A stretch of 64,000 bases of DNA, from assembly GCA_937973685.1 (NCBI GenBank), contig CALJKJ010000042.1, positions 1,551 to 65,550 on the forward strand. The letters are read 5' to 3'. The first letter of the stretch is position 1. The number at the start of each line of letters is the position of its first letter. Below are positions 39,753 to 48,836 of this stretch, piece by piece. The DNA is from an uncultured Flavobacteriales bacterium (GTDB lineage Bacteria > Bacteroidota > Bacteroidia > Flavobacteriales_D > Crocinitomicaceae). The position numbers and the translations under genes are program-made. The notes under the pieces were generated by a model. That model was not told the origin of the DNA and searched no databases. It saw only the letters and a list, made by a program, of their open reading frames with translations.

Positions 39753-40331
39753 TTATAATATTTTTAACGCTCCTTTGATGAGAACTTCAACAGTTTCATC
39801 GCCAGTTGCAATTTTTTCAATTGCTTTTTCAGCTGCTTTTTTATCAAAACCTAATGATATTAATGCTGTTAACGCATCAAATCGATTTGTATTGTGGCCA
39901 TTGAAAATATTTGCATTTCCAGACCACTCCATTTTAATCATTTTGTCTTTCAAATCTATGATAACACGTTGGGCTGTTTTTGCTCCAATCCCTTTAATGG
40001 ATTGAATGGTCATCACATCATCTGTTTGAATCGCTTGAGCAATGTCAACAGGTTGTAACGATGACAACATCAAAATGGCCGTATTCGGACCTATACCAGA
40101 AACACTCAATAATAAATTGAATATGTCGCGTTCTTCCGTAGTAGCAAATCCAAACAACAGGTGCGCATCTTCGCGAATGATTTGTTGCGTGTATAATTTC
40201 AATTGTTCCTCTGAACCTAATGCAGAAAATGTATTCAATGAAATTTTCACAAAATAACCTACTCCGCCACACTCAATAATGACATTTGTAGGATTTTTTT
40301 CGACTAATCTTCCGTTTAGATGTGCAATCAT
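39753..40331 (-). CDS. ruvA: Holliday junction DNA helicase subunit RuvA
   Basis: IECGGVGY, IREDAHLLFGF, VSGIGP, KGIGAKTAQR, ALISLGF. Confidence 0.97.
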   Translation of the reverse strand: MIAHLNGRLVEKNPTNVIIECGGVGYFVKISLNTFSALGSEEQLKLYTQQIIREDAHLLFGFATTEERDIFNLLLSVSGIGPNTAILMLSSLQPVDIAQAIQTDDVMTIQSIKGIGAKTAQRVIIDLKDKMIKMEWSGNANIFNGHNTNRFDALTALISLGFDKKAAEKAIEKIATGDETVEVLIKGALKIL

Positions 40332-40334
40332 AGC

Positions 40335-42599
40335 TTATTTTGTTTGTGCATCAACCACAGCAACTTTTACCATATTTACTATTTCGCGCACTGATGAACC
40401 CATTTGAAGTACGTGAATTGATTTTTTCAATCCAACTAAAATTGGACCAATCGCATCGCCTTCTGTTATTTCTTGCAATAACTTATAAGCAATATTACCT
40501 GCTGATAAATTAGGGAAAATCAATGTATTTACTTGTTTATTTGCCAAATGTGAAAACGAGAACTTCTCATTCATCAATTCTTGGTTCAATGCGAAATTTG
40601 CTTGTAATTCCCCGTCTACACACAATGCAGGATGTTTTTCATGCAAAATCTTAACAGCATCACCCATTTTCTGAGCATCTTCACCTGGAGCTGAACCAAA
40701 GTTAGAATAGCTCAATAATGCAATTTTCGGAACAACCTTTAATTTCTTAAGCATTTTAGCGACATTCGCAGTTATCTCAGCAATTTGTTCAGCGCTTGGA
40801 TTTTTATTTATCGTTGTGTCAGCCAAGAACATTGGTCCACGCTTGGTCATTAAGATATATAACCCAGCAACTGTATTTACATCTTTTTCTAATCCAACTG
40901 TTTGAATAGCAGGTCGGACAACATCACGGTAATTCCGAGTTAAGCCAGAAATCATTGCATCTGCATCACCTGTTTCAACCATCATCGCTGCAAAGTGATT
41001 CCGTTCGCGCATGATTTGAATTGCTTCAAACTCAGTAACACCTTTTCGTTTTCTTTTTTCAAAAAACACATTTCCATATGCTTGTCTGCGTTCTTTTTCA
41101 GTGTCTGACTTTGGATCAATAATTTCAAGATTTGGAATTTCTATGTTATATTCTTCAATCAAACTTTCAATTACTTCACGTCTGCCCAATAAAATTGGCG
41201 TACAAACACCTTCTTCCGTGACCGTTTGGGCGGCTTTTAATATTTTTAAATGATCAGCTTCAGCAAATACAACACGTTTTGGATTCTGTTGCGCTTTTGA
41301 AGTCATTTGTCGGACAAGTTTGTTGTCAAGTCCCAAACGCTTCTTTAATTCAGTTTCATATGCTTCCCAGTTTTCAATCGGATTTTTAGCAACACCCGAT
41401 TCCATTGCTGCACGAGCAACTGCAGGAGCTACATAATAAATCAAACGTGGGTCGAGAGGCTTTGGAATAATTTGATCGCGGCCAAATGAAATATGTTTTT
41501 CACCATAAGCCTCAATAACTTCATCAGGAATTGTTTCTTTTGCAAGATTAGCAATGGCTTTCACAGCTGCCAATTTCATTTCCTCGTTGATACACGTTGC
41601 ACGCACATCCAAAGCACCTCTAAATATGTAGGGAAATCCAAGTACATTATTCACTTGGTTAGGATGGTCCGATCGACCTGTTGCCATGATGATATCACCA
41701 CGAACAGCCATTGCATCTTTGTACGAAATTTCAGGTTCAGGATTAGCCAAAGCAAAAACAATTGGTGATTCCGCCATCGCTGCAATCATCTCTTTAGATA
41801 CTAAATTTCCTTTTGACAATCCTAAAAAGACATCAGCATTTTTGAATGAATCTTCCAAAGAAATATCAGTTTGATGAACAGCATATACTTGTTTCATCTC
41901 ATCTAAATCAGTTCGGTGCGCATGAATTAGTCCTTTGCTGTCGAACATGAAAATATTTGGCAATTGTGCGCCCAACGCAACATACAAGTTAACGCATGAA
42001 ATTGCTGCTGCACCCGCACCAGAAATAACTATTTTAATGTCTTCAATTCTCTTTTCAGCAAGTTCCAACGCATTTAACAAGGCAGCAGATGAAATGATTG
42101 CTGTTCCGTGTTGGTCGTCATGCATGATGGGAATATCCAACTCAGCTTTTAACCTTCTTTCTATTTCAAAAGCTTCTGGAGCTTTGATATCTTCTAAATT
42201 AATTCCTCCAAAAGTTGGCGCTATTGCTTTAACAGTTTGAATAAATAATTCAGGGTCTTTTGCATCAACTTCAATGTCAAAAACATCTATATCGGCAAAA
42301 ATTTTGAAGAGCAAACCTTTCCCCTCCATTACTGGTTTTGATGCAAGCGGTCCGATATCTCCTAAGCCTAAAACAGCTGTTCCATTTGAAATTACTGCAA
42401 CTAAATTTGCTTTTGCAGTGTATTTGTAAACATCATCTGGAGTTTCTGCTATTTTCAAACAAGGTTCAGCAACTCCTGGAGAGTAAGCCAAAGACAGGTC
42501 TCTTTGTGAAGCATACGGTTTCGTAGGTATAACTTCAATTTTACCAGGTCTACCAGATGCATGATAATCGAGCGCGTCTTGTTTACGTATTTTTGCCAT
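40335..42599 (-). CDS. maeB: NADP-dependent malic enzyme with C-terminal PTA-like domain
   Basis: AYSPGVA, VISNGTAVLGLG, INLEDIK, HDDQHGTA, NQVNNVLGFP, followed by a PTA domain (NLSAGNIAYKLL). Confidence 0.96.
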   Translation of the reverse strand: MAKIRKQDALDYHASGRPGKIEVIPTKPYASQRDLSLAYSPGVAEPCLKIAETPDDVYKYTAKANLVAVISNGTAVLGLGDIGPLASKPVMEGKGLLFKIFADIDVFDIEVDAKDPELFIQTVKAIAPTFGGINLEDIKAPEAFEIERRLKAELDIPIMHDDQHGTAIISSAALLNALELAEKRIEDIKIVISGAGAAAISCVNLYVALGAQLPNIFMFDSKGLIHAHRTDLDEMKQVYAVHQTDISLEDSFKNADVFLGLSKGNLVSKEMIAAMAESPIVFALANPEPEISYKDAMAVRGDIIMATGRSDHPNQVNNVLGFPYIFRGALDVRATCINEEMKLAAVKAIANLAKETIPDEVIEAYGEKHISFGRDQIIPKPLDPRLIYYVAPAVARAAMESGVAKNPIENWEAYETELKKRLGLDNKLVRQMTSKAQQNPKRVVFAEADHLKILKAAQTVTEEGVCTPILLGRREVIESLIEEYNIEIPNLEIIDPKSDTEKERRQAYGNVFFEKRKRKGVTEFEAIQIMRERNHFAAMMVETGDADAMISGLTRNYRDVVRPAIQTVGLEKDVNTVAGLYILMTKRGPMFLADTTINKNPSAEQIAEITANVAKMLKKLKVVPKIALLSYSNFGSAPGEDAQKMGDAVKILHEKHPALCVDGELQANFALNQELMNEKFSFSHLANKQVNTLIFPNLSAGNIAYKLLQEITEGDAIGPILVGLKKSIHVLQMGSSVREIVNMVKVAVVDAQTK

Positions 42600-42667: not shown

Positions 42668-42700
42668 AAAAAGCCCGAAAGAAAAATCTTTCGGGCTTTC
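42668..42700. terminator. Intrinsic terminator downstream of the Omp28-CTD gene
   Basis: AAAGCCCGAAAG...CTTCGGGCTTT-like stem preceded by an A run (U run on the minus strand). Confidence 0.8.
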
Positions 42701-42717
42701 AATGTATTAGAACAAGC

Positions 42718-44514
42718 TTATTTCACAATTAAATTTTGTGTGTAAGTTGCACCATTGTTTAAGATTGAAACTAAGTAGTTACCAGCTTTCAATTCAGCAA
42801 CTGGTAAAGTAACAGTCGTTTTACCTGAAGCATTGTTTACATTTTCTGTAACAACTCGACGTCCAGCTAAATCTGTAATAGTTACGATGTAATCACCACC
42901 TTGTGCATCGAAGTTAACATTTACTAAACCACTTGTAGCAGGATTAGGGAAAACTTCCATAGCGATCGCTGCAGTAACTTCGTTAATAGAAGCAGTTGCG
43001 CTAGCTTTCATTTTATCAAACATAAATTTACCAGTAGCAAAAGTAGGGACACCTGCAACAGCTGTTCCGTTTACTTGGATTTCAATGTTTCCATCGCCGT
43101 AACCAGAATCATATCCATCACCATAAGCATCGTTTACTTCTAATGTATAACATTCGTTAGCAGATAAGTTAAAATTAACATCCGCTTGAACGATTGCACC
43201 ATTTGCAGCGCCATCAGTGTAAGGACCACCAGAAGCTACTGTTGTTCCAGCACCATTTTTAACAGCCCAAGTTGTCTCAGAACCGTAACGGTCAGTTGTA
43301 ACTTTTACAGTTGCAGCTGTTCCATTTGCGACAGTTGCAATATCAATTGCTTTCGTAGCTGATGCTGTTGCACCAATACCACTTGTACCACCATTTACAC
43401 CAGTAATTGTAACAACTACTGAATTTGTACCTTGCGGTGTAAATGCAACGGCAGGAATTTGAATTTCAGCTGAACCAAATTGTGCAATTGGTGTTGAATA
43501 AGTATAAGCAACTGGAGTACCACCATTTACTGAAGTAGAAAAGTTAACTGAAGTAATTGCAGCACCTGAATTTGAAACTCTTACTTTAGGAGCAACTGAT
43601 TCACCTGCACAAAGATTCAACGTATTTGTAATACCCATGTTAGTTAAAGTTGCAACTGGAACATTTGTATAAGTAGGACTTACTTGTGCACCTGTGAAAA
43701 CTTCACTAGTTGTAACAGCATTATGTCCTTGGTGGACTACAGCAAAAAACTCTAATTGACCAATTTCCAATGTTGTTCCAGCAATAGAAGCAGGTAATGT
43801 ATACGTATACGTTTTAGTAATTACACCTGTTGATGAAGCATCAATTGATTCTCCCCAAGTTCCTCCAGTATTGATAAATCCACGGAAAATGTGTTGGTGT
43901 AAATAATTACCATTTGGTAAAATCGCAGCAGTATTGTAAGGACCGTAATTTGATTGAGGACCCTCAAAATTGTTTTGTAAGATACCTACATTTAAAAAAT
44001 GATTTGTACCTGCAGCAAAAGGTGAAGTGTAAAACGCTTCAACTGTAACTGTAACAACTCGCGTTGCTGCATCAATTGTTGCATTCATTGCTAAGTTTAC
44101 TGGAGATGGCTCTGCAAGAACAGTTGTTGCTTGGGCAGCCCAGTTACCACGACCTGTAGAAATACGTGTCATGTCAGATGAATGAGGTCTTCTTTGAACT
44201 GATCCTGCTGGGTAACCAGTTGGATTAAAAAATGTATTCAATGTTGTCCCATCAGTAGTTCTTAAATCTGGCTCACCAGTACCTGGAGTAGCATAAGAAC
44301 CCGCGTGAATGTTTACTAAAACAACACGCCCTGGATTAGCAGCAGCAATATCATTTGCACGTTTGTGTCCATCTGGACAATATCCACAGTGGATACCTGT
44401 TAATTCCTCTAAAACAACATTTTTGTTTAATGGAGTTTGAGAAACAGGGGTGTTCTGTGCGTTTACAACAAATAGTGATAAACAACTAGAAACAAAAAGT
44501 ACTATTTTTTTCAT
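42718..44514 (-). CDS. Secreted Omp28/HBP35-like thioredoxin-fold protein with Ig-like domains and T9SS type-A CTD
   Basis: Signal peptide; VVLEELTGIHCGYCPDG; HQHIFRG; TTDRYGSETTW domain; C-terminal VFPNP...GNYLVS...LIVK. Confidence 0.85.
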   Translation of the reverse strand: MKKIVLFVSSCLSLFVVNAQNTPVSQTPLNKNVVLEELTGIHCGYCPDGHKRANDIAAANPGRVVLVNIHAGSYATPGTGEPDLRTTDGTTLNTFFNPTGYPAGSVQRRPHSSDMTRISTGRGNWAAQATTVLAEPSPVNLAMNATIDAATRVVTVTVEAFYTSPFAAGTNHFLNVGILQNNFEGPQSNYGPYNTAAILPNGNYLHQHIFRGFINTGGTWGESIDASSTGVITKTYTYTLPASIAGTTLEIGQLEFFAVVHQGHNAVTTSEVFTGAQVSPTYTNVPVATLTNMGITNTLNLCAGESVAPKVRVSNSGAAITSVNFSTSVNGGTPVAYTYSTPIAQFGSAEIQIPAVAFTPQGTNSVVVTITGVNGGTSGIGATASATKAIDIATVANGTAATVKVTTDRYGSETTWAVKNGAGTTVASGGPYTDGAANGAIVQADVNFNLSANECYTLEVNDAYGDGYDSGYGDGNIEIQVNGTAVAGVPTFATGKFMFDKMKASATASINEVTAAIAMEVFPNPATSGLVNVNFDAQGGDYIVTITDLAGRRVVTENVNNASGKTTVTLPVAELKAGNYLVSILNNGATYTQNLIVK

Positions 44515-44625
44515 GGTTTAATTTTAGAATAGTCAAATATAACATTGATTATTGACCAATGCAAATATCTGTTGCTTTTTTTAATGAATTATGCTAATTC
44601 GCACAAAACTAAAAGTTTAGCACAT

Positions 44626-44651
44626 AAAAAAAGGAGCTGTAAGCTCCTTTA
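44626..44651. terminator. Intrinsic terminator between the two T9SS cargo genes
   Basis: AAAGGAGC-tgtaa-GCTCCTTT with a flanking A run. Confidence 0.8.
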
Positions 44652-44672
44652 ATAACTATGTTTTGAAATAAA

Positions 44673-45428
44673 TTAGTGTTTTATAACAATGCGTTTTGTT
44701 TGAATAGCAACACCTTTTTCAATGATTGAAACGATATAAACGCCATTTTTCAATTCTGAAACATCAACTTTTTTTGTTTTTGTTGCTGTTTCATCGTAAA
44801 TTATTTTACCCAAAACGTCAACAATTCGAATATCAAATTTATCAAGCCCTTCAGCATTTATTGTTAAAACTGATGAAACCGGGTTTGGATAAACAGAAAT
44901 TGAAACTGGTTCTTTTTCATCAATTGAAGCACACGAAAAGATGACACGTACATCAACCGAGTCAAGGTATGCCCCTCCTTCTTCGTGAACATAATACCTG
45001 TATGTAGCAGTGCCACAATTTTGAGCTACATAATGAATTGCAGCTGAACCAGATTGACCTACTGGAAGTCCTGAAACAGGATTGAATTGACTATCAAAAA
45101 TAGTTAATGGATCAGGAGTAGTCCAATTAATTGCTGCACTTGACGAATAACATTGACCTGCTTCACCTTCGATTCCCCAGCAAATATAATCTTCCCAATT
45201 AGAAGGTATAACTGTTAAGTGTTTACGCGTTATTTTCCAAGATTTATCTGTAGTTCCTATATTTTTAAACAACAACTCAATGTTTGAATCACCGTTTGAA
45301 GTAACTACATGAACAAGTTGCGTCCCGTTTAAAATAGTCGTGTTACCCAGTTTCGTAATTTCAACTTGTGAATGTCCAAATCGTGCAATTGCAACAATCA
45401 CTGCAAATAAAAGTATTAGTTGTTTCAT
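44673..45428 (-). CDS. Small T9SS type-A cargo protein of unknown function
   Basis: Signal peptide, an Ig-like domain with ICWG...QCY, then SVYPNP...GVYIV...KRIVIKH. Confidence 0.8.
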   Translation of the reverse strand: MKQLILLFAVIVAIARFGHSQVEITKLGNTTILNGTQLVHVVTSNGDSNIELLFKNIGTTDKSWKITRKHLTVIPSNWEDYICWGIEGEAGQCYSSSAAINWTTPDPLTIFDSQFNPVSGLPVGQSGSAAIHYVAQNCGTATYRYYVHEEGGAYLDSVDVRVIFSCASIDEKEPVSISVYPNPVSSVLTINAEGLDKFDIRIVDVLGKIIYDETATKTKKVDVSELKNGVYIVSIIEKGVAIQTKRIVIKH

Positions 45429-45623
45429 TCTTTTGTGTTTCCAACAAATTTAATAAAAAAATGTATTCACACTTGCCTAAATTGTTGAAATACGTTAAAA
45501 AAGAAAAAAAGGTATATTGATTTAGTTGTTATTATTTTTCAAAATAGTGCTAAAACATCAACATTTGAATGTATCTTTGATTTACGGCATGAAAATTGAA
45601 ATGCTAACAATAAAATTTGAAAC

Positions 45624-46121
45624 ATGAAAAAAATTGCACTTTTAGTAGTTTGTTTGTCAGTGATGTCAAGCATTTTCTCCCAAAACGATGGTAAAAAAGT
45701 TCCTGCTATTCAACTTACAGACTTGAATGGAAAACCAGTTAATACTGCGAAACTTTTTGAAAATGGTCCAATTGTAATTTCTTTTTGGGCAACTTGGTGC
45801 GCTCCTTGTAAACGTGAACTAAACACTATTCACGAGGAATACGAAGAATGGCAAAAAGAAACAGGTATTACTATCGTTGCTGTTTCTATTGACGATGAAA
45901 AAACAAAAGCACAAGTTCCATTATATGTAAATGGAAAAGGTTGGGAATATGTTGTCTTACTAGATCCAAACTGGGATTTCAAACGTGCAATGGGCGTTGG
46001 AAATGTTCCACATACATTTTTAATAGATGCTGAAGGGAATATCGTTTACTCACACACAGGATACTCTGAAGGTGACGAAGAAAAATTATTGGAAGAAATA
46101 AAAATGTTGAAAAACAGATAA
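45624..46121 (+). CDS. TlpA-family thiol-disulfide reductase, exported
   Basis: SPI-type signal, FWATWCAPC, VAVSID, VPHTFLID. Confidence 0.9.
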   Translation: MKKIALLVVCLSVMSSIFSQNDGKKVPAIQLTDLNGKPVNTAKLFENGPIVISFWATWCAPCKRELNTIHEEYEEWQKETGITIVAVSIDDEKTKAQVPLYVNGKGWEYVVLLDPNWDFKRAMGVGNVPHTFLIDAEGNIVYSHTGYSEGDEEKLLEEIKMLKNR

Positions 46122-46126
46122 GCCGT

Positions 46127-47827
46127 ATGAAAAATTGGTTATTCGGATTAACAACATTTTGTAGTATTCAGTTAACTCTTGGTCAAACCACCAATGATGG
46201 TTCGTTAACTGGAAACATGGAAACAACCTTTCAGTACTTAAATGCAGATTCTTTAATCGGTGCAACTCAACCTGAATCTAAAGGATTGATGAGTTCATAC
46301 ATGAACGTATTTTACCGCAATGGAAACTTCAAAGCAGGAATGCGTGTTGAGTCGTACTTACCTAGAATTCAAGGTTACCCGAATCGTTTTGATGGAACGG
46401 GAATAGGAATGCGCTATATAGGTTATGCGAATGATTTCATTGACATTACACTTGGGCATTTCTATGAACAATTTGGACAAGGTACTGCGCTTCGTGTTTA
46501 TGAAGACCGCAACTTAGGCTATGATAATGTGTTAGATGGAGCACGCATAATATTAAAACCCGTAAAAGGTGTTCAATTAAAAGGTGTTTACGGTTATCAA
46601 CGTTATTCATTCCAGAATGGAAGTGTTGTTAATTCAGCTGGTATTACTCGAGGAGCGGATGCTCAATTTCATTTAAACGACCTCATCAAACCATTAACAA
46701 AAAGTGGGTTAGACATAACGCTTGGCGGTTCATTTGTAAGTAAATACCAAGTTGACAACGATCCCGATTATATATTACCGCAAAACGTAGGTGTTTATGG
46801 TGGTCGTGCAGACATTCGTTATAAAAAATGGACGTTAAATGCCGAGTTTACTCACAAAGACAATGACCCATCAGCTGATAACAATTACAGTTATAATCCA
46901 GGTCACTCTGCGATATTAAATGTTGGTTACTCAAAAAAAGGGTTAGGTATTGTTTTCTCTGCAAAATCAGTAGACAACATGAGCTTTCGATCAGACAGAA
47001 CAAAAGATTTACAAGACTTAATCATTAATTATTTACCTGCATTAAACAAAACTCACTCGTATAATCTTGTCGCTACTCTTTACCCCTATGCAACTCGTCC
47101 AGTTGGTGAAATTGCTTTTCAAGGTGAAGTGTTGTACATGATTCCAAAAGGGAAAATCAACAAGAAATTTGGTGTGCCAATCAATGTCAATTTTTCAACA
47201 GCTTATTTACCTATCAAATCTACTTCAGGAATTAATCCAAATGACTCATCTCGAATTAATTATGTAGGTAAACCATTTAATATGAGCGACTCTTTACTTT
47301 GGAGAGATTTCAATGTGAATGTTACTTATAAATTCACCAAAACATTCTACTTAATTGCTGCTTATTACAACATCTCAATTAACAATGATGTCTCTAAAAT
47401 ATCAGGAGATGCGCATGGGTTAATCCGCTCAAATATTGGAGTAGCTGAGTTGGGTTGGAAAATCAATAAAAACAATAATTTACGCATGGAATTCCAAGCA
47501 TTATTCACTAATAAAATTGATAAGGTTAATGAAGACCAAACGATTTCTCGTGTGAGTAATGACAAGGGAAATTGGGCAACAGTTGTAGCTGAATATTCTA
47601 TTTCGCCAAATTGGTTCTTTGCTGTAATGGATCAATACAATTATGGAAACAACAATCCTGAATTACGATTACATTATTTAATCGGAACTGTTGGTTATTT
47701 GAAAGATGCAACACGTATAGCAGTTAATTATGGCCGTCAACGTGCAGGGTTATTTTGTGTTGGAGGTGTTTGTCGATTTGTTCCAGCTTCCAATGGTTTA
47801 ACATTGACTGTTTCTCATAGTTTCTAA
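46127..47827 (+). CDS. Outer-membrane beta-barrel, DUF6029-like
   Basis: Signal peptide, amphipathic beta strands, GHFYEQFGQG, LGYDNVLDG, C-terminal GRQRAGLFCVGGVCRFVPASNG...F. Confidence 0.7.
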   Translation: MKNWLFGLTTFCSIQLTLGQTTNDGSLTGNMETTFQYLNADSLIGATQPESKGLMSSYMNVFYRNGNFKAGMRVESYLPRIQGYPNRFDGTGIGMRYIGYANDFIDITLGHFYEQFGQGTALRVYEDRNLGYDNVLDGARIILKPVKGVQLKGVYGYQRYSFQNGSVVNSAGITRGADAQFHLNDLIKPLTKSGLDITLGGSFVSKYQVDNDPDYILPQNVGVYGGRADIRYKKWTLNAEFTHKDNDPSADNNYSYNPGHSAILNVGYSKKGLGIVFSAKSVDNMSFRSDRTKDLQDLIINYLPALNKTHSYNLVATLYPYATRPVGEIAFQGEVLYMIPKGKINKKFGVPINVNFSTAYLPIKSTSGINPNDSSRINYVGKPFNMSDSLLWRDFNVNVTYKFTKTFYLIAAYYNISINNDVSKISGDAHGLIRSNIGVAELGWKINKNNNLRMEFQALFTNKIDKVNEDQTISRVSNDKGNWATVVAEYSISPNWFFAVMDQYNYGNNNPELRLHYLIGTVGYLKDATRIAVNYGRQRAGLFCVGGVCRFVPASNGLTLTVSHSF

Positions 47828-47836
47828 TTTATTATC

Positions 47837-48784
47837 ATGAAAAAAATAAGTATATATTTAGGATTCATTCTCTTGCTAGTTATTATTTCAAGTTGTGATA
47901 AAGTAACAAATCCTTATCCACCAACCAGTGGAGGAAATGGTGAACTAGACTGGAGTTTATATCCGGATGGAGATTCTGCTCATTATGCGCAAAATAAATG
48001 GCCAACATTTATTGCTAATACAAATTCATTGCGCAATGTACTCATAGAAGATTTTACAGGTCATACATGTAACAGTTGTCCTGCTGCAGCAACTCTAGCA
48101 CATACCCTAGAAACGAACAATCCAGCACGTGTATTTACGGCAACTATTCATACTGGACCAACAGGAATGGGACCTTTACAAGCTGTCCAATTACCAGACT
48201 ATCCTACAAATTGGACAAATCCACAAGGTTTAGAAATTGGTAAGTATTTTGGGTCAATACCAGGTTCAGCTTTTCAAGGTAATCCACGAGGAACAATCAA
48301 TCGGACAAATAATGGCGGACAATTAACATTACATCCATCTGGCTGGACGAGTAAAGTCAATAGTATTATTGCTGCAAACGATTTAAAAGTAAATGTTCAA
48401 GCACACAGTAATTATTTTGCAAGTACACGTGGTTACTTTTTGCATACAGAACTTGCTCTTTTAGATGCTTCACTTGTTGCAAACCAGTTAGGTATGGTTG
48501 TTTATTTGATAGAAGATTCTATTATCGGCGATCAAAAAATGTCTGATAACTCACACAATCCTACTTATGTTCACCGTGATGTGATGAGAAGTTGTATCGA
48601 TGGAAAAGCTTTTGGAAGAACAATTTCAACCTCAAACCTTTCAACGAATGGCAACTACTATTTGAACTATAGCTACAAATTGCCCGCATCTTATGATCCG
48701 ACAAATACGCATGTGTTGATTTATGTCTACGACAAAACAACCATGGAAATTTATCAAGTCATTGAACACGAAATAATTGAATAA
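47837..48784 (+). CDS. Omp28 family outer-membrane lipoprotein with CxxC
   Basis: Lipobox ISSC; VLIEDFTGHTCNSCPAA; YLIEDSI; HRDVMR. Confidence 0.85.
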   Translation: MKKISIYLGFILLLVIISSCDKVTNPYPPTSGGNGELDWSLYPDGDSAHYAQNKWPTFIANTNSLRNVLIEDFTGHTCNSCPAAATLAHTLETNNPARVFTATIHTGPTGMGPLQAVQLPDYPTNWTNPQGLEIGKYFGSIPGSAFQGNPRGTINRTNNGGQLTLHPSGWTSKVNSIIAANDLKVNVQAHSNYFASTRGYFLHTELALLDASLVANQLGMVVYLIEDSIIGDQKMSDNSHNPTYVHRDVMRSCIDGKAFGRTISTSNLSTNGNYYLNYSYKLPASYDPTNTHVLIYVYDKTTMEIYQVIEHEIIE

Positions 48785-48817
48785 AAAAATGCTGTCTTAA
48801 TTAGACAGCATTTTTTT
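48783..48817. terminator. Bidirectional terminator after the Omp28 operon
   Basis: AAAAAAATGCTGTCT-taatt-AGACAGCATTTTTTT perfect stem. Confidence 0.9.
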
Positions 48818-48836
48818 AAACTATTGTAATCTATTA

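Follow-up and report, generated by a model that had tools for sequence, protein, structure and literature searches.

Five adjacent genes of a Fluviicola-like bacterium form a real, unstudied and phylum-wide envelope thiol-redox module, which points to undescribed thiol chemistry at the cell surface. They lie in the window (the whole stretch of 64,000 nucleotides that was analyzed) and encode an exported thioredoxin of the TlpA type, a large DUF6029 β-barrel, an Omp28-family lipoprotein and two proteins with a type IX secretion system (T9SS) sorting domain. The reading proposed here, tentatively although it is quite possible, is that the barrel and the lipoprotein together hand TlpA-derived electrons to thioredoxins at the surface.

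Organization of the locus

All five open reading frames and their cysteine motifs, as described in a first-pass annotation of the sequence, were recovered at the same positions in an ORF and motif check. Their family assignments agree between Pfam and NCBIfam (Redoxin/AhpC-TSA, DUF6029, Omp28 and Por_Secre_tail). The genes for the TlpA-like protein, the barrel and the lipoprotein follow each other on the plus strand with intergenic gaps of 5 and 9 nt, i.e. as the tight operon that had been noted, and the two T9SS cargo genes are transcribed divergently. The cluster had also been described as bounded by terminators, and hairpins are indeed found 3' of both minus-strand genes and of the plus-strand operon. 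The one behind the large T9SS gene (42669..42700, minus strand) has a 14-pair stem followed by a T-run, and the one behind the small T9SS gene (44630..44650, minus strand) was located by a hairpin scan. The third (48791..48818, no strand assigned) reads as GCTGTCT-TAATT-AGACAGC between an A-run and a T-run, and is a predicted two-way terminator that separates the operon from the convergent downstream gene.

Candidate promoters were sought with the Bacteroidota-type -7 box consensus TAnnTTTG. Motif matches lie 17 nt upstream of the small T9SS gene (TAAATTTG, 45445..45452, minus strand), 45 nt upstream of tlpA (TATCTTTG, 45572..45579, plus strand) and 20 nt upstream of the large T9SS gene. Inside the operon, the motif search of the plus strand found no such box before the barrel or the lipoprotein gene. 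Because the motif is not enriched window-wide, the boxes are taken as supportive at most.

The DUF6029 barrel and its cysteine pair

The outer-membrane β-barrel (566 aa, about 24 strands; 46127..47827, plus strand) matches DUF6029 (PF19494) with E=1e-169 and 565.7 bits over profile positions 1-538 of 538, and is encoded by a single copy in this genome. More than 4,000 DUF6029 homologues were found, and a literature search returned no experimental data for any DUF6029 protein. In an HHpred analysis, plug-less Wzi-like barrels were reported to be similar to DUF6029 (PMC9603273). Wzi-type barrels occur near polysaccharide export genes, whereas none of the 142 DUF6029 loci sampled here lies among such genes and the neighbors are thioredoxin genes instead. 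A structure search with the barrel model returned only generic large barrels (TM of 0.51 or less in either normalization).

The mature barrel had been said to contain only two cysteines, which is correct. Cys544 and Cys549 flank the Gly-Gly turn of the last β-hairpin (Cys544-V-G-G-V-Cys549; 47756..47773, plus strand; alignment and model), and the stretch CVGGVCR (residues 544-550) forms a C-terminal C-x-x-G-x-C hairpin ahead of the last strand. This motif is kept in 138 of 141 full-length barrels; the three exceptions are due to a contig end or to assembly faults, and the intact barrels all keep the pair. Among the closer homologues the columns C544, G546, G547, C549, R550 and P553 are invariant in the alignment (Arg550 and Pro553, which follow the pair, being near-invariant overall), and with the distant members included invariance remains only for C544, G547 and C549.

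In the AlphaFold2 model (pLDDT 87.9, pTM 0.81) the hairpin strands span residues 541-545 and 548-552, and the two cysteines lie 16-21 residues from the periplasmic C-terminus. Strand parity in this model would place the pair outside the cell, at the tip of the last hairpin (23/24), and not within the membrane. A cross-strand cysteine pair around a two-residue turn has a geometry typical of strained, reducible disulfides. At about a membrane's width from TlpA, the pair could also be a simple structural staple.

The thioredoxin-like partners

The exported TlpA/ResA-type thioredoxin (165 aa; 45624..46121, plus strand; Redoxin 87.2 bits, AhpC-TSA 79.5 bits) carries the active site W-C59-A-P-C62 (WCAPC, residues 58-62; 45798-45809, plus strand) in its sequence. 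Its N-terminus, MKKIALLVVCLSVMSSIFS/QND, reads by eye as a signal peptide without a canonical lipobox and is probably cleaved before Q20. The best PDB match is 2m72 (E=1e-42), as against 7e-20 for ResA, and DsbE was also matched. The protein stays below the NCBIfam cut-offs of its relatives, with 91.8 vs 170 bits for ResA, 70.3 vs 123 bits for DsbE and 47.2 vs 230 bits for the rhizobial TlpA. On sequence comparison, the module's TlpA is a separate subfamily with 2m72 as its nearest PDB entry. TlpA proteins are periplasmic reductants that are usually fed by DsbD/CcdA. Elsewhere in the genome, on a different contig, lies a gene for a DsbD that has both membrane cysteines and a CVNC domain. DsbD adjoins the module in only one of 142 loci, which counts against the proposal.

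The Omp28-family lipoprotein (315 aa; 47837..48784, plus strand) scores 73.1 bits against PF11551 (cut-off 34.9 bits) and 112.9 bits against NF033782, under the cut-off of 150 bits. With its lipobox VIISS-C20 and lipid Cys20, it is the only one of the two Omp28-family proteins that classifies as an outer-membrane lipoprotein. An N-terminal thioredoxin-like domain, with C78-N-S-C81 (48068-48079, plus strand) in its sequence, is followed by a C-terminal β-sandwich, and the C-terminal half matches Omp28 (PDB 2r2c). Its mature N-terminus is CDKVTNP (CDK[VI][ED]xP in relatives) and agrees only in part with the signal published for surface export, C-X-K-(D/E)2. We infer the sidedness of the lipoprotein, and the partial match counts against a firm surface placement.

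The barrel and the lipoprotein were also modeled as a read-through fusion with a paired alignment, a crude single-chain test and the only complex test made. Both parts are well folded (pLDDT 88.3), and in the lipoprotein the CxxC comes after a strand and sits at the start of a helix (pLDDT above 90), which is the geometry of a thioredoxin active site. No confident docking and no insertion of the partner into the barrel were predicted in this fusion model. The pTM of 0.62, compared to 0.81 for the barrel alone, is by our estimate the value expected of two independently placed domains.

The secreted proteins

The larger T9SS-secreted protein (598 aa; 42718..44514, minus strand) scores 51.9 bits against Omp28 (PF11551) and 43.2 bits against Por_Secre_tail over residues 521-597, and 96.3 bits against NF033782, again under the cut-off of 150 bits. 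It resembles HBP35 of Porphyromonas gingivalis (PG0616, PDB 5y1a), likewise T9SS-secreted with an N-terminal CGYC and a type A sorting domain, which spans residues 521-598 in the window protein. The region around its CGYC (C43-G-Y-C46; 44377-44388, minus strand) aligns with C48/C51 of HBP35 (VVLEELTGIHCGYCP vs VVLEVFTAEWCGYCP). HBP35 measures 344 aa and the window protein contains a long extra middle region. The thioredoxin motif of HBP35, named in the first-pass annotation, is borne out by a published DTT-driven insulin-reductase activity that requires C48/C51 (PMC2907840).

The smaller T9SS-tailed protein (251 aa; 44673..45428, minus strand; Por_Secre_tail 55.8 bits) has the four cysteines that were ascribed to it (residues 83, 93, 138 and 166), and its type A sorting domain spans residues 179-249. 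What had been overlooked is its probable kinship with PorA. The pair C83/C93 (45150-45182, minus strand) is invariant in 35 homologues. A profile of these homologues matches the N-domain of PorA (PDB 6kjk) at full length, over 115-119 positions, with marginal E-values of 0.021 and 0.062, and C83/C93 align with the C-F-G-Q-C of PorA in the profile alignment; as a single-sequence query, the protein gave no match. The two proteins are similar in length (251 aa vs 246 aa for PorA, PGN_0123). The small T9SS protein is probably a remote PorA homologue.

Conservation across the Bacteroidota

The conservation of the core trio was assessed in 142 DUF6029 loci. A TlpA-like gene lies directly upstream of the barrel gene in 122 of 137 loci, and a gene for a CxxC lipoprotein directly downstream in 115 of 132. 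Since this arrangement recurs in about 90% of the 142 loci across the phylum, it is far beyond chance. Co-conservation of the neighborhood, set beforehand as a test, was thus strongly confirmed. The cysteine pairs, on whose conservation the original proposal had been staked, are kept by the barrel, TlpA, the lipoprotein and both the large and the small T9SS protein. In many loci one or two extra T9SS-tailed CGPC thioredoxin proteins are encoded beside TlpA.

The most distant clade has 502-aa barrels with the motif CTSGICY. There, a CPHC lipoprotein of the Redoxin family stands in place of the Omp28 lipoprotein, and the next gene encodes a protein that combines Redoxin with Por_Secre_tail. This non-orthologous displacement indicates that the role has been selected, and not the fold family. 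CPHC is a DsbA-type oxidizing motif. The CxxC dipeptides vary widely across the loci (CGNC, CPNC, CIYC, CPHC and others), so that the redox direction cannot be read from them, which counts against the proposal.

DUF6029 is present in 79 of 301 sampled genomes, about a quarter of the Bacteroidota sample. Omp28 was detected above the Pfam cut-off in 48 genomes, and all 48 also contain DUF6029 (Fisher 6e-35, uncorrected for phylogeny); an Omp28-family protein without the barrel was found in none of the 301 genomes. Even if the proposed relay is wrong, this is a firm new constraint on Omp28 biology. Where PorA-like genes were found, the genome also had DUF6029 in 34 of 36 cases, and in at least 21 genomes they lie within 5 kb of the barrel gene.

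Proposed mechanism and alternative explanations

What is shown here is the set of parts with their cysteine pairs, how well these are conserved and that they occur together; from this we infer the electron-transfer steps and their direction as follows. A candidate single promoter would drive tlpA, the barrel and the thioredoxin-like lipoprotein, with the two T9SS cargo genes divergent to them. Reducing equivalents from the cytoplasm would pass via the genome's DsbD to periplasmic TlpA. From there they would reach proteins of the thioredoxin fold, which the barrel and the lipoprotein together would keep at the outer membrane or beyond it, and HBP35-type surface oxidoreductases would stay able to reduce or isomerize disulfides outside the cell. 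The barrel may serve as a physical conduit or scaffold and the thioredoxin domain of the lipoprotein as the carrier, while the cross-strand cysteine pair at the outer rim, beside the conserved Arg, would be a late or terminal exchange station. The first-pass annotation had proposed such a relay across the outer membrane, with electrons passing through the barrel's own cysteine pair. Co-conservation and the retained cysteine pairs give the relay partial support. Strand parity in the model counts against a direct passage through the barrel pair: at the extracellular tip, the pair would be out of reach of periplasmic TlpA unless a carrier crosses the lumen.

A bolder version, which we regard as unlikely though worth serious attention, would have DUF6029 and the lipoprotein form a protein-thiol conduit through the outer membrane, the first in any bacterium. 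Electrons would run from DsbD to TlpA, the CxxC of the lipoprotein, the rim pair of the barrel and finally HBP35-like oxidoreductases, and the same barrel might also be a T9SS-independent route for PorA. [quoted passage not shown] This, together with the PorA-like genes near the barrel gene, would suit an export or assembly device. DUF6029 would then be a dedicated outer-membrane translocon or assembly partner, comparable to Slam or LptD/E, that brings the lipoprotein to the cell surface and perhaps proteins of the PorA type as well. Until they have crossed, TlpA would maintain the cysteines of these proteins in the reduced state, and the disulfide of the barrel would be structural. The constant lipoprotein gene downstream of the barrel, the occurrence of Omp28-family proteins only together with it in the 301 genomes, the conserved CDK[VI][ED]xP after the lipid cysteine as a possible recognition or export signal, and a width of about 24 strands, as in usher and LptD pores, fit this explanation as well. 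However, it leaves unexplained the invariant extracellular cysteine pair beside a conserved Arg and the retention of a thioredoxin lipoprotein despite the swap of fold family, no docking was predicted in the fusion model, and a general pathway for flipping lipoproteins to the surface already exists in Bacteroidota (PMC5080379). We consider it unlikely, and less probable than the bolder version.

Alternatively, the barrel might import a disulfide-bearing or oxidized substrate (peptides, a cofactor or heme-related compounds), which the TlpA-recharged lipoprotein, facing the periplasm, would reduce on entry. TlpA could then reach the lipoprotein without any membrane crossing, the weak export signal of the window's lipoprotein is compatible with a periplasmic side, the barrel has a generic likeness, but no more, to large substrate channels and to the barrels of TonB-dependent transporters, and HBP35 binds hemin and supports growth at low hemin (PMC2907840). 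We nevertheless judge this uptake quite improbable: the remaining conserved proteins of the module are T9SS cargo destined for the outside of the cell, the barrel's sole conserved cysteines are predicted on the outside, and no TonB box, plug domain or inner-membrane transporter was conserved with the barrel in the model and the loci examined. Somewhat less probable again is that the module feeds redox information into T9SS regulation by setting or reading the thiol state of the PorA-like surface protein, whose P. gingivalis counterpart signals to the two-component system PorXY. PorA acts upstream of PorXY-SigP (PMC7712824), its gene lies beside omp28, PG2174 and PG2175 (PMC13744359, PMC4335976), and both the aligned cysteine pair and the near-confinement of PorA-like genes to DUF6029-positive genomes agree with such a role. 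Against it, mutating the four cysteines of PorA left activation unaffected and Cys92/Cys96 are dispensable for its known signaling role (PMC12152298), which counts against the proposed relay too; moreover, the PorA homology is marginal and many DUF6029 genomes, including the whole distant clade, keep the trio with no PorA-like gene detected at the level used. That TlpA paralogues and Omp28 proteins merely lie by chance beside an unrelated porin is very improbable. It is true that TlpA-like proteins are numerous in Bacteroidota and that these genes have not been linked by experiment, but order, strand and motifs are conserved across distant families, the genes are only a few nucleotides apart, the phyletic coupling is perfect and the module's TlpA is far closer to 2m72 than to ResA.

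Relation to known systems

The proposed handing of TlpA-derived electrons to surface thioredoxins would extend the pathway from DsbD/CcdA to TlpA/ResA/CcmG, with which the module shares an exported WCxPC thioredoxin, a DsbD in the genome and an outward chain of cysteine pairs. The clients at which the known branches of that pathway end, such as cytochrome c, Sco and CoxB, reside in the periplasm or the inner membrane. These branches lack a barrel with a cysteine pair, a thioredoxin lipoprotein in the outer membrane and secreted thioredoxins, all of which the window's module has. We know of no pathway that takes thiol reducing power beyond the Gram-negative periplasm. Surface thioredoxins such as HBP35 show measurable reductase activity with, to our knowledge, no known extracellular electron source; for HBP35 itself we know of no identification of the surface source of its reducing power.

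By locus tag, P. gingivalis seems to have the module as well. A similar neighborhood around omp28 had been suggested in the first-pass annotation and does exist in the literature, where PG2172 is PorA, PG2173 Omp28, PG2174 uncharacterized and PG2175 a thioredoxin-domain protein (PMC13744359, PMC4335976). By locus tag, the same four kinds of gene would adjoin each other there, with PG2174 as the putative counterpart of the barrel; in the window the lipoprotein matches 2r2c, the family of the small T9SS protein 6kjk and TlpA 2m72. Of these four, PorA alone has been studied functionally, and the papers leave its neighbors unmentioned. DUF6029, a large barrel family without assigned function, would adjoin a T9SS regulator in P. 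gingivalis, by locus tag. The module is a genetically testable candidate for the recharging of surface oxidoreductases, for the function of DUF6029 and for the T9SS-independent crossing of PorA.

Two other outer-membrane systems can be compared. In LptD/LptE, a large barrel is likewise encoded with, and needs, a lipoprotein partner, and the disulfides of LptD are functionally important. However, LptD has no sequence or close structural kinship with the DUF6029 barrel, and its disulfides link the N-terminal domain to the barrel, whereas the single pair of DUF6029 staples one hairpin tip. In MtrCAB of Shewanella, a large barrel has been proposed to allow electron exchange between redox proteins on either side of the outer membrane, and MtrB is found at rank 48 among the generic structural matches of the barrel model. 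MtrCAB conducts through heme chains, and a periplasmic cytochrome is inserted into its barrel, whereas the module would use cysteine pairs that need direct contact. A protein-thiol conduit through DUF6029 would resemble DsbD in its logic and MtrCAB in its architecture.

Gene cluster in the window

The module consists of a core trio on the plus strand and two divergent genes on the minus strand. The first gene of the trio (45624-46121) encodes a TlpA-like thioredoxin, predicted to be exported, with the motif WC59APC62. The second starts 5 nt past tlpA and encodes a DUF6029 barrel of 566 amino acids (full-length Pfam match, E=1e-169), whose mature part contains only two cysteines, C544 and C549. 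The third, an Omp28-family lipoprotein of 315 amino acids with the lipid Cys20 and the motif C78NSC81, starts 9 nt past the barrel gene. On the minus strand lie a small T9SS protein (251 amino acids) and a large Omp28/HBP35-like T9SS protein (598 amino acids, C43GYC46), both carrying a T9SS type A sorting domain.

In a motif scan, candidate Bacteroidota -7 boxes were found before tlpA and before both minus-strand genes, and none was found ahead of the barrel or the lipoprotein gene. All three transcription units end in hairpin terminators, as judged by a terminator scan together with direct reading. The clear hairpin terminator at 48791-48818, with A/T runs on both sides, was overlooked by the scan and seen by direct reading. 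An ORF and motif check of the window returned the five ORFs of the first-pass annotation with the motifs and spacing described there. Close homologues place the organism with Fluviicola / Crocinitomicaceae in the Flavobacteriales.

Conservation across Bacteroidota

The module is genuine and widely distributed, and no description of it was found in the literature that could be searched. In an even sampling of Bacteroidota, 79 of 301 genomes (46 of 144 genera) contain DUF6029, nearly always as a single copy. A total of 142 DUF6029 loci was collected: 30 from the 301-genome search, 32 from the weakest family matches and 80 named loci. The latter are the closest 80 in the genome collection and come mostly from metagenome-assembled genomes labelled Flavobacteriales or Bacteroidales, with one isolate (Hymenobacter duratus). 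Neighbours were counted with profiles made from the module's own proteins.

The first-pass annotation had proposed neighbourhood co-conservation across Bacteroidota as a check, and the module passed it. In 122 of 137 loci the TlpA-like gene immediately precedes the barrel gene on the same strand, and in 115 of 132 a CxxC lipoprotein gene immediately follows it; in most other loci these genes are close by, in a changed order. Of 141 full-length barrels, 138 carry the motif C-x-x-G-x-C; the three exceptions are a barrel cut by the end of its contig, a copy with a frameshift, and an N-containing locus with the motif legible in the next frame. One or two T9SS-tailed proteins with CGPC or a similar motif, together with the small T9SS protein, accompany the trio in many loci.

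Several apparent deviations were rejected. Locus L128, which seemed to combine a motif-less barrel with a CxxC-less Omp28, is disrupted by 15 Ns and a frameshift; reading the adjoining frame recovers both motifs. In about 10 loci a distance of 2.5 kb between the barrel and the lipoprotein gene downstream was an artefact of ORFs starting upstream and overlapping the barrel end; the gene is directly adjacent. Omp28 matches with an in-frame TGA were considered as selenoproteins, but each stop precedes its gene, so there is no evidence for selenocysteine. DsbD is not a member of the module, adjoining it in 1 of 142 loci.

Thioredoxin displacement and coupling of Omp28 to DUF6029

The most distant clade contains barrels of about 502 amino acids (Pfam E ~1e-10) with the motif CTSGICY. 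Here, a Redoxin-family lipoprotein of 173-178 amino acids with CPHC takes the place of Omp28 after the barrel, and the following gene encodes a fusion of a Redoxin domain with a T9SS sorting domain. The thioredoxin family is thus switched, while the layout of periplasmic thioredoxin, Cys-pair barrel, thioredoxin lipoprotein and secreted thioredoxin stays. As read from these sequences, the displacement argues that selection acts on the chemistry of the module.

The two families are also coupled in their distribution. Omp28 (PF11551) scored above the cut-off in 48 of the 301 genomes, and DUF6029 is present in all 48 (Fisher 6e-35, uncorrected for phylogeny). Omp28 without the barrel was seen in only four of the 301 genomes, all with weak Omp28 matches only. 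Conversely, 28 DUF6029 genomes have no Omp28 match at E ≤ 1e-5: 26 belong to the displaced clade, and in the other two a module-derived profile still detects an Omp28-like neighbour. Neither Pfam family was matched in 14 control genomes. These include Bacteroides thetaiotaomicron, where the module is either absent or diverged past Pfam detection.

TlpA-like and secreted proteins

The TlpA-like protein matches PDB 2m72 far better (1e-42) than ResA (7e-20), which places it in a distinct subfamily. The N-terminus of the large T9SS protein aligns with HBP35 (PDB 5y1a) across CGYC. HBP35 reduces insulin with DTT, in dependence on C48 and C51 (PMC2907840).

The small T9SS family has an invariant Cys pair (C-W-x(1-11)-C-Y/F). 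Its 35-member profile matches the whole N-terminal domain of PorA (PDB 6kjk) at marginal E values (0.02 and 0.06), with the Cys pair aligned to C-F-G-Q-C of PorA, the two cysteines of that motif being Cys92 and Cys96 (PMC12152298). Of the 301 genomes, 36 contain strong matches to the family, and 34 of these have DUF6029 as well. At least 21 PorA-like matches lie within 5 kb of a barrel. The remaining two genomes, G111 and G071 (5.5e-20 and 7.7e-12), have no DUF6029 match and represent assembly gaps or true barrel-less cases.

The first-pass annotation had pointed to a similar neighbourhood around omp28 of P. gingivalis. It is upheld by the consecutive tags PG2172 (PorA), PG2173 (Omp28), PG2174 (an uncharacterised protein detected in vesicles) and PG2175 (thioredoxin-domain) (PMC13744359, PMC4335976), in which PG2174 may be the counterpart of the DUF6029 barrel.

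Structure of the barrel and the lipoprotein

The barrel was modelled with AlphaFold2 from a 33-sequence alignment, and the model is confident (pLDDT 87.9, pTM 0.81). It has about 24 predicted strands, as counted from strands and loop lengths; the turns are short at the end where the termini lie (the periplasm), and the loops are long at the opposite end. C544 and C549 flank the Gly-Gly turn of a predicted hairpin formed by residues 541-545 and 548-552. By strand parity in the model, the turn caps the last hairpin and lies extracellularly, and 16 residues separate C549 from the periplasmic end of the last strand. The two cysteines are predicted to face each other, each one position off the two-residue turn, as in a cross-strand disulfide. 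Cross-strand disulfides of this kind are often strained and reducible. The residue after C549 is a nearly invariant Arg. Invariant charged residues of the barrel include D41, E240, K244, E328, E489 and R530. In a Foldseek search with the model, the matches were confined to large barrels of a generic kind (ushers, TonB-dependent transporters, AlgE, LptD, MtrB), with a TM score of 0.51 or less in either normalisation, and a PDB sequence search found no relative of the barrel.

The lipoprotein is predicted to comprise a disordered tether, a strand, the CxxC at a helix start (the thioredoxin pattern) and a beta-sandwich, the last corresponding to the crystallised part of Omp28 (PDB 2r2c). Its gene shares the frame of the barrel gene, with TAA and three codons between them, so that both could be predicted as one chain by read-through of the stop. 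The fusion alignment combined the window read-through, 25 other loci with same-frame genes and barrel-only rows. In this crude single-chain test both parts were well folded (pLDDT 88.3). The pTM of 0.62 is about that estimated for a well-folded domain of 566 residues joined to one of 300 residues in free placement; the fusion model hence does not support docking of the predicted partners, although so weak a test leaves room for it. Foldseek with the fusion model returned generic barrels only and no information on the lipoprotein.

Proposed mechanism and alternatives

The genes of the module very probably form one functional thiol-redox unit. The mechanism that we tentatively favour, at somewhat less than even odds, is the delivery of reducing power to thioredoxin-fold proteins located in the outer membrane or outside it. 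DsbD, whose gene is present in the genome, would feed the periplasmic TlpA, and TlpA would pass reducing power on to these proteins through the barrel and the lipoprotein as conduit. Such delivery would account for exported, membrane-bound and secreted thioredoxins staying together, and for CGYC/CGPC surface proteins (isomerase- or reductase-type) travelling with a reductant. That the barrel's own Cys pair acts as a relay station is a weaker claim and rather unlikely, since the pair lies on the outside and may be a staple. The thiol-disulfide relay through the outer membrane proposed in the first-pass annotation is supported in part. The conserved module stands; the membrane-crossing mechanism is a testable hypothesis, for which the extracellular Cys pair and the unsupported docking are unfavourable.

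Among the rival explanations, coincidence is very unlikely and is contradicted by the conserved gene order and by the coupling of Omp28 to DUF6029. The barrel could have an export or assembly role, a less likely reading than the favoured one; PorA arrives at the cell surface in T9SS-translocon mutants by a T9SS-independent route (PMC7712824). A separate suggestion comes from the sole mention of DUF6029 found in the searchable literature, which likened it to Wzi-like barrels and guessed at polysaccharide export (PMC9603273); supporting neighbour genes were found in none of the loci examined. Alternatively, the module could be a redox input to PorA signalling, given its PorA-like member. PorXY activation is independent of the PorA cysteines, however (PMC12152298). 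Finally, the module could be a periplasm-facing uptake-and-reduction system. The published surface-export signal of Capnocytophaga is C-X-K-(D/E)2, and other species use SDDDD or SDDFE (PMC5080379). The lipoprotein family has the consensus C-D-K-[VI]-[ED]-x-P past the lipid Cys; the window lipoprotein (CDKVTNP) has the Lys of the signal but not its acidic pair.

Genes flanking the module

Upstream of the module in the window (39753-42599) lie ruvA and a malic enzyme gene, named by resemblance only. Several Flavobacteriales loci (L060, L064, L075, L083) have this pair ahead of the module as well, so local synteny reaches beyond the module. Downstream of the lipoprotein gene, the window contains a convergent ORF resembling a biotin/lipoyl carrier and another resembling an M1 aminopeptidase, both likewise named from sequence. 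It has no PF13568 barrel gene after the lipoprotein gene. In many other loci a PF13568 (OMP_b-brl_2) barrel of 200-220 amino acids directly follows the Omp28 lipoprotein gene (L075:10528-11148, also L085, L088, L095, L099, L110), followed by a UbiX-like gene. In some loci (L031, L044, L073, L022) the barrel gene is followed by a tandem pair of Omp28 lipoprotein paralogues whose CxxC dipeptides differ (e.g. CNNC and CVSC).
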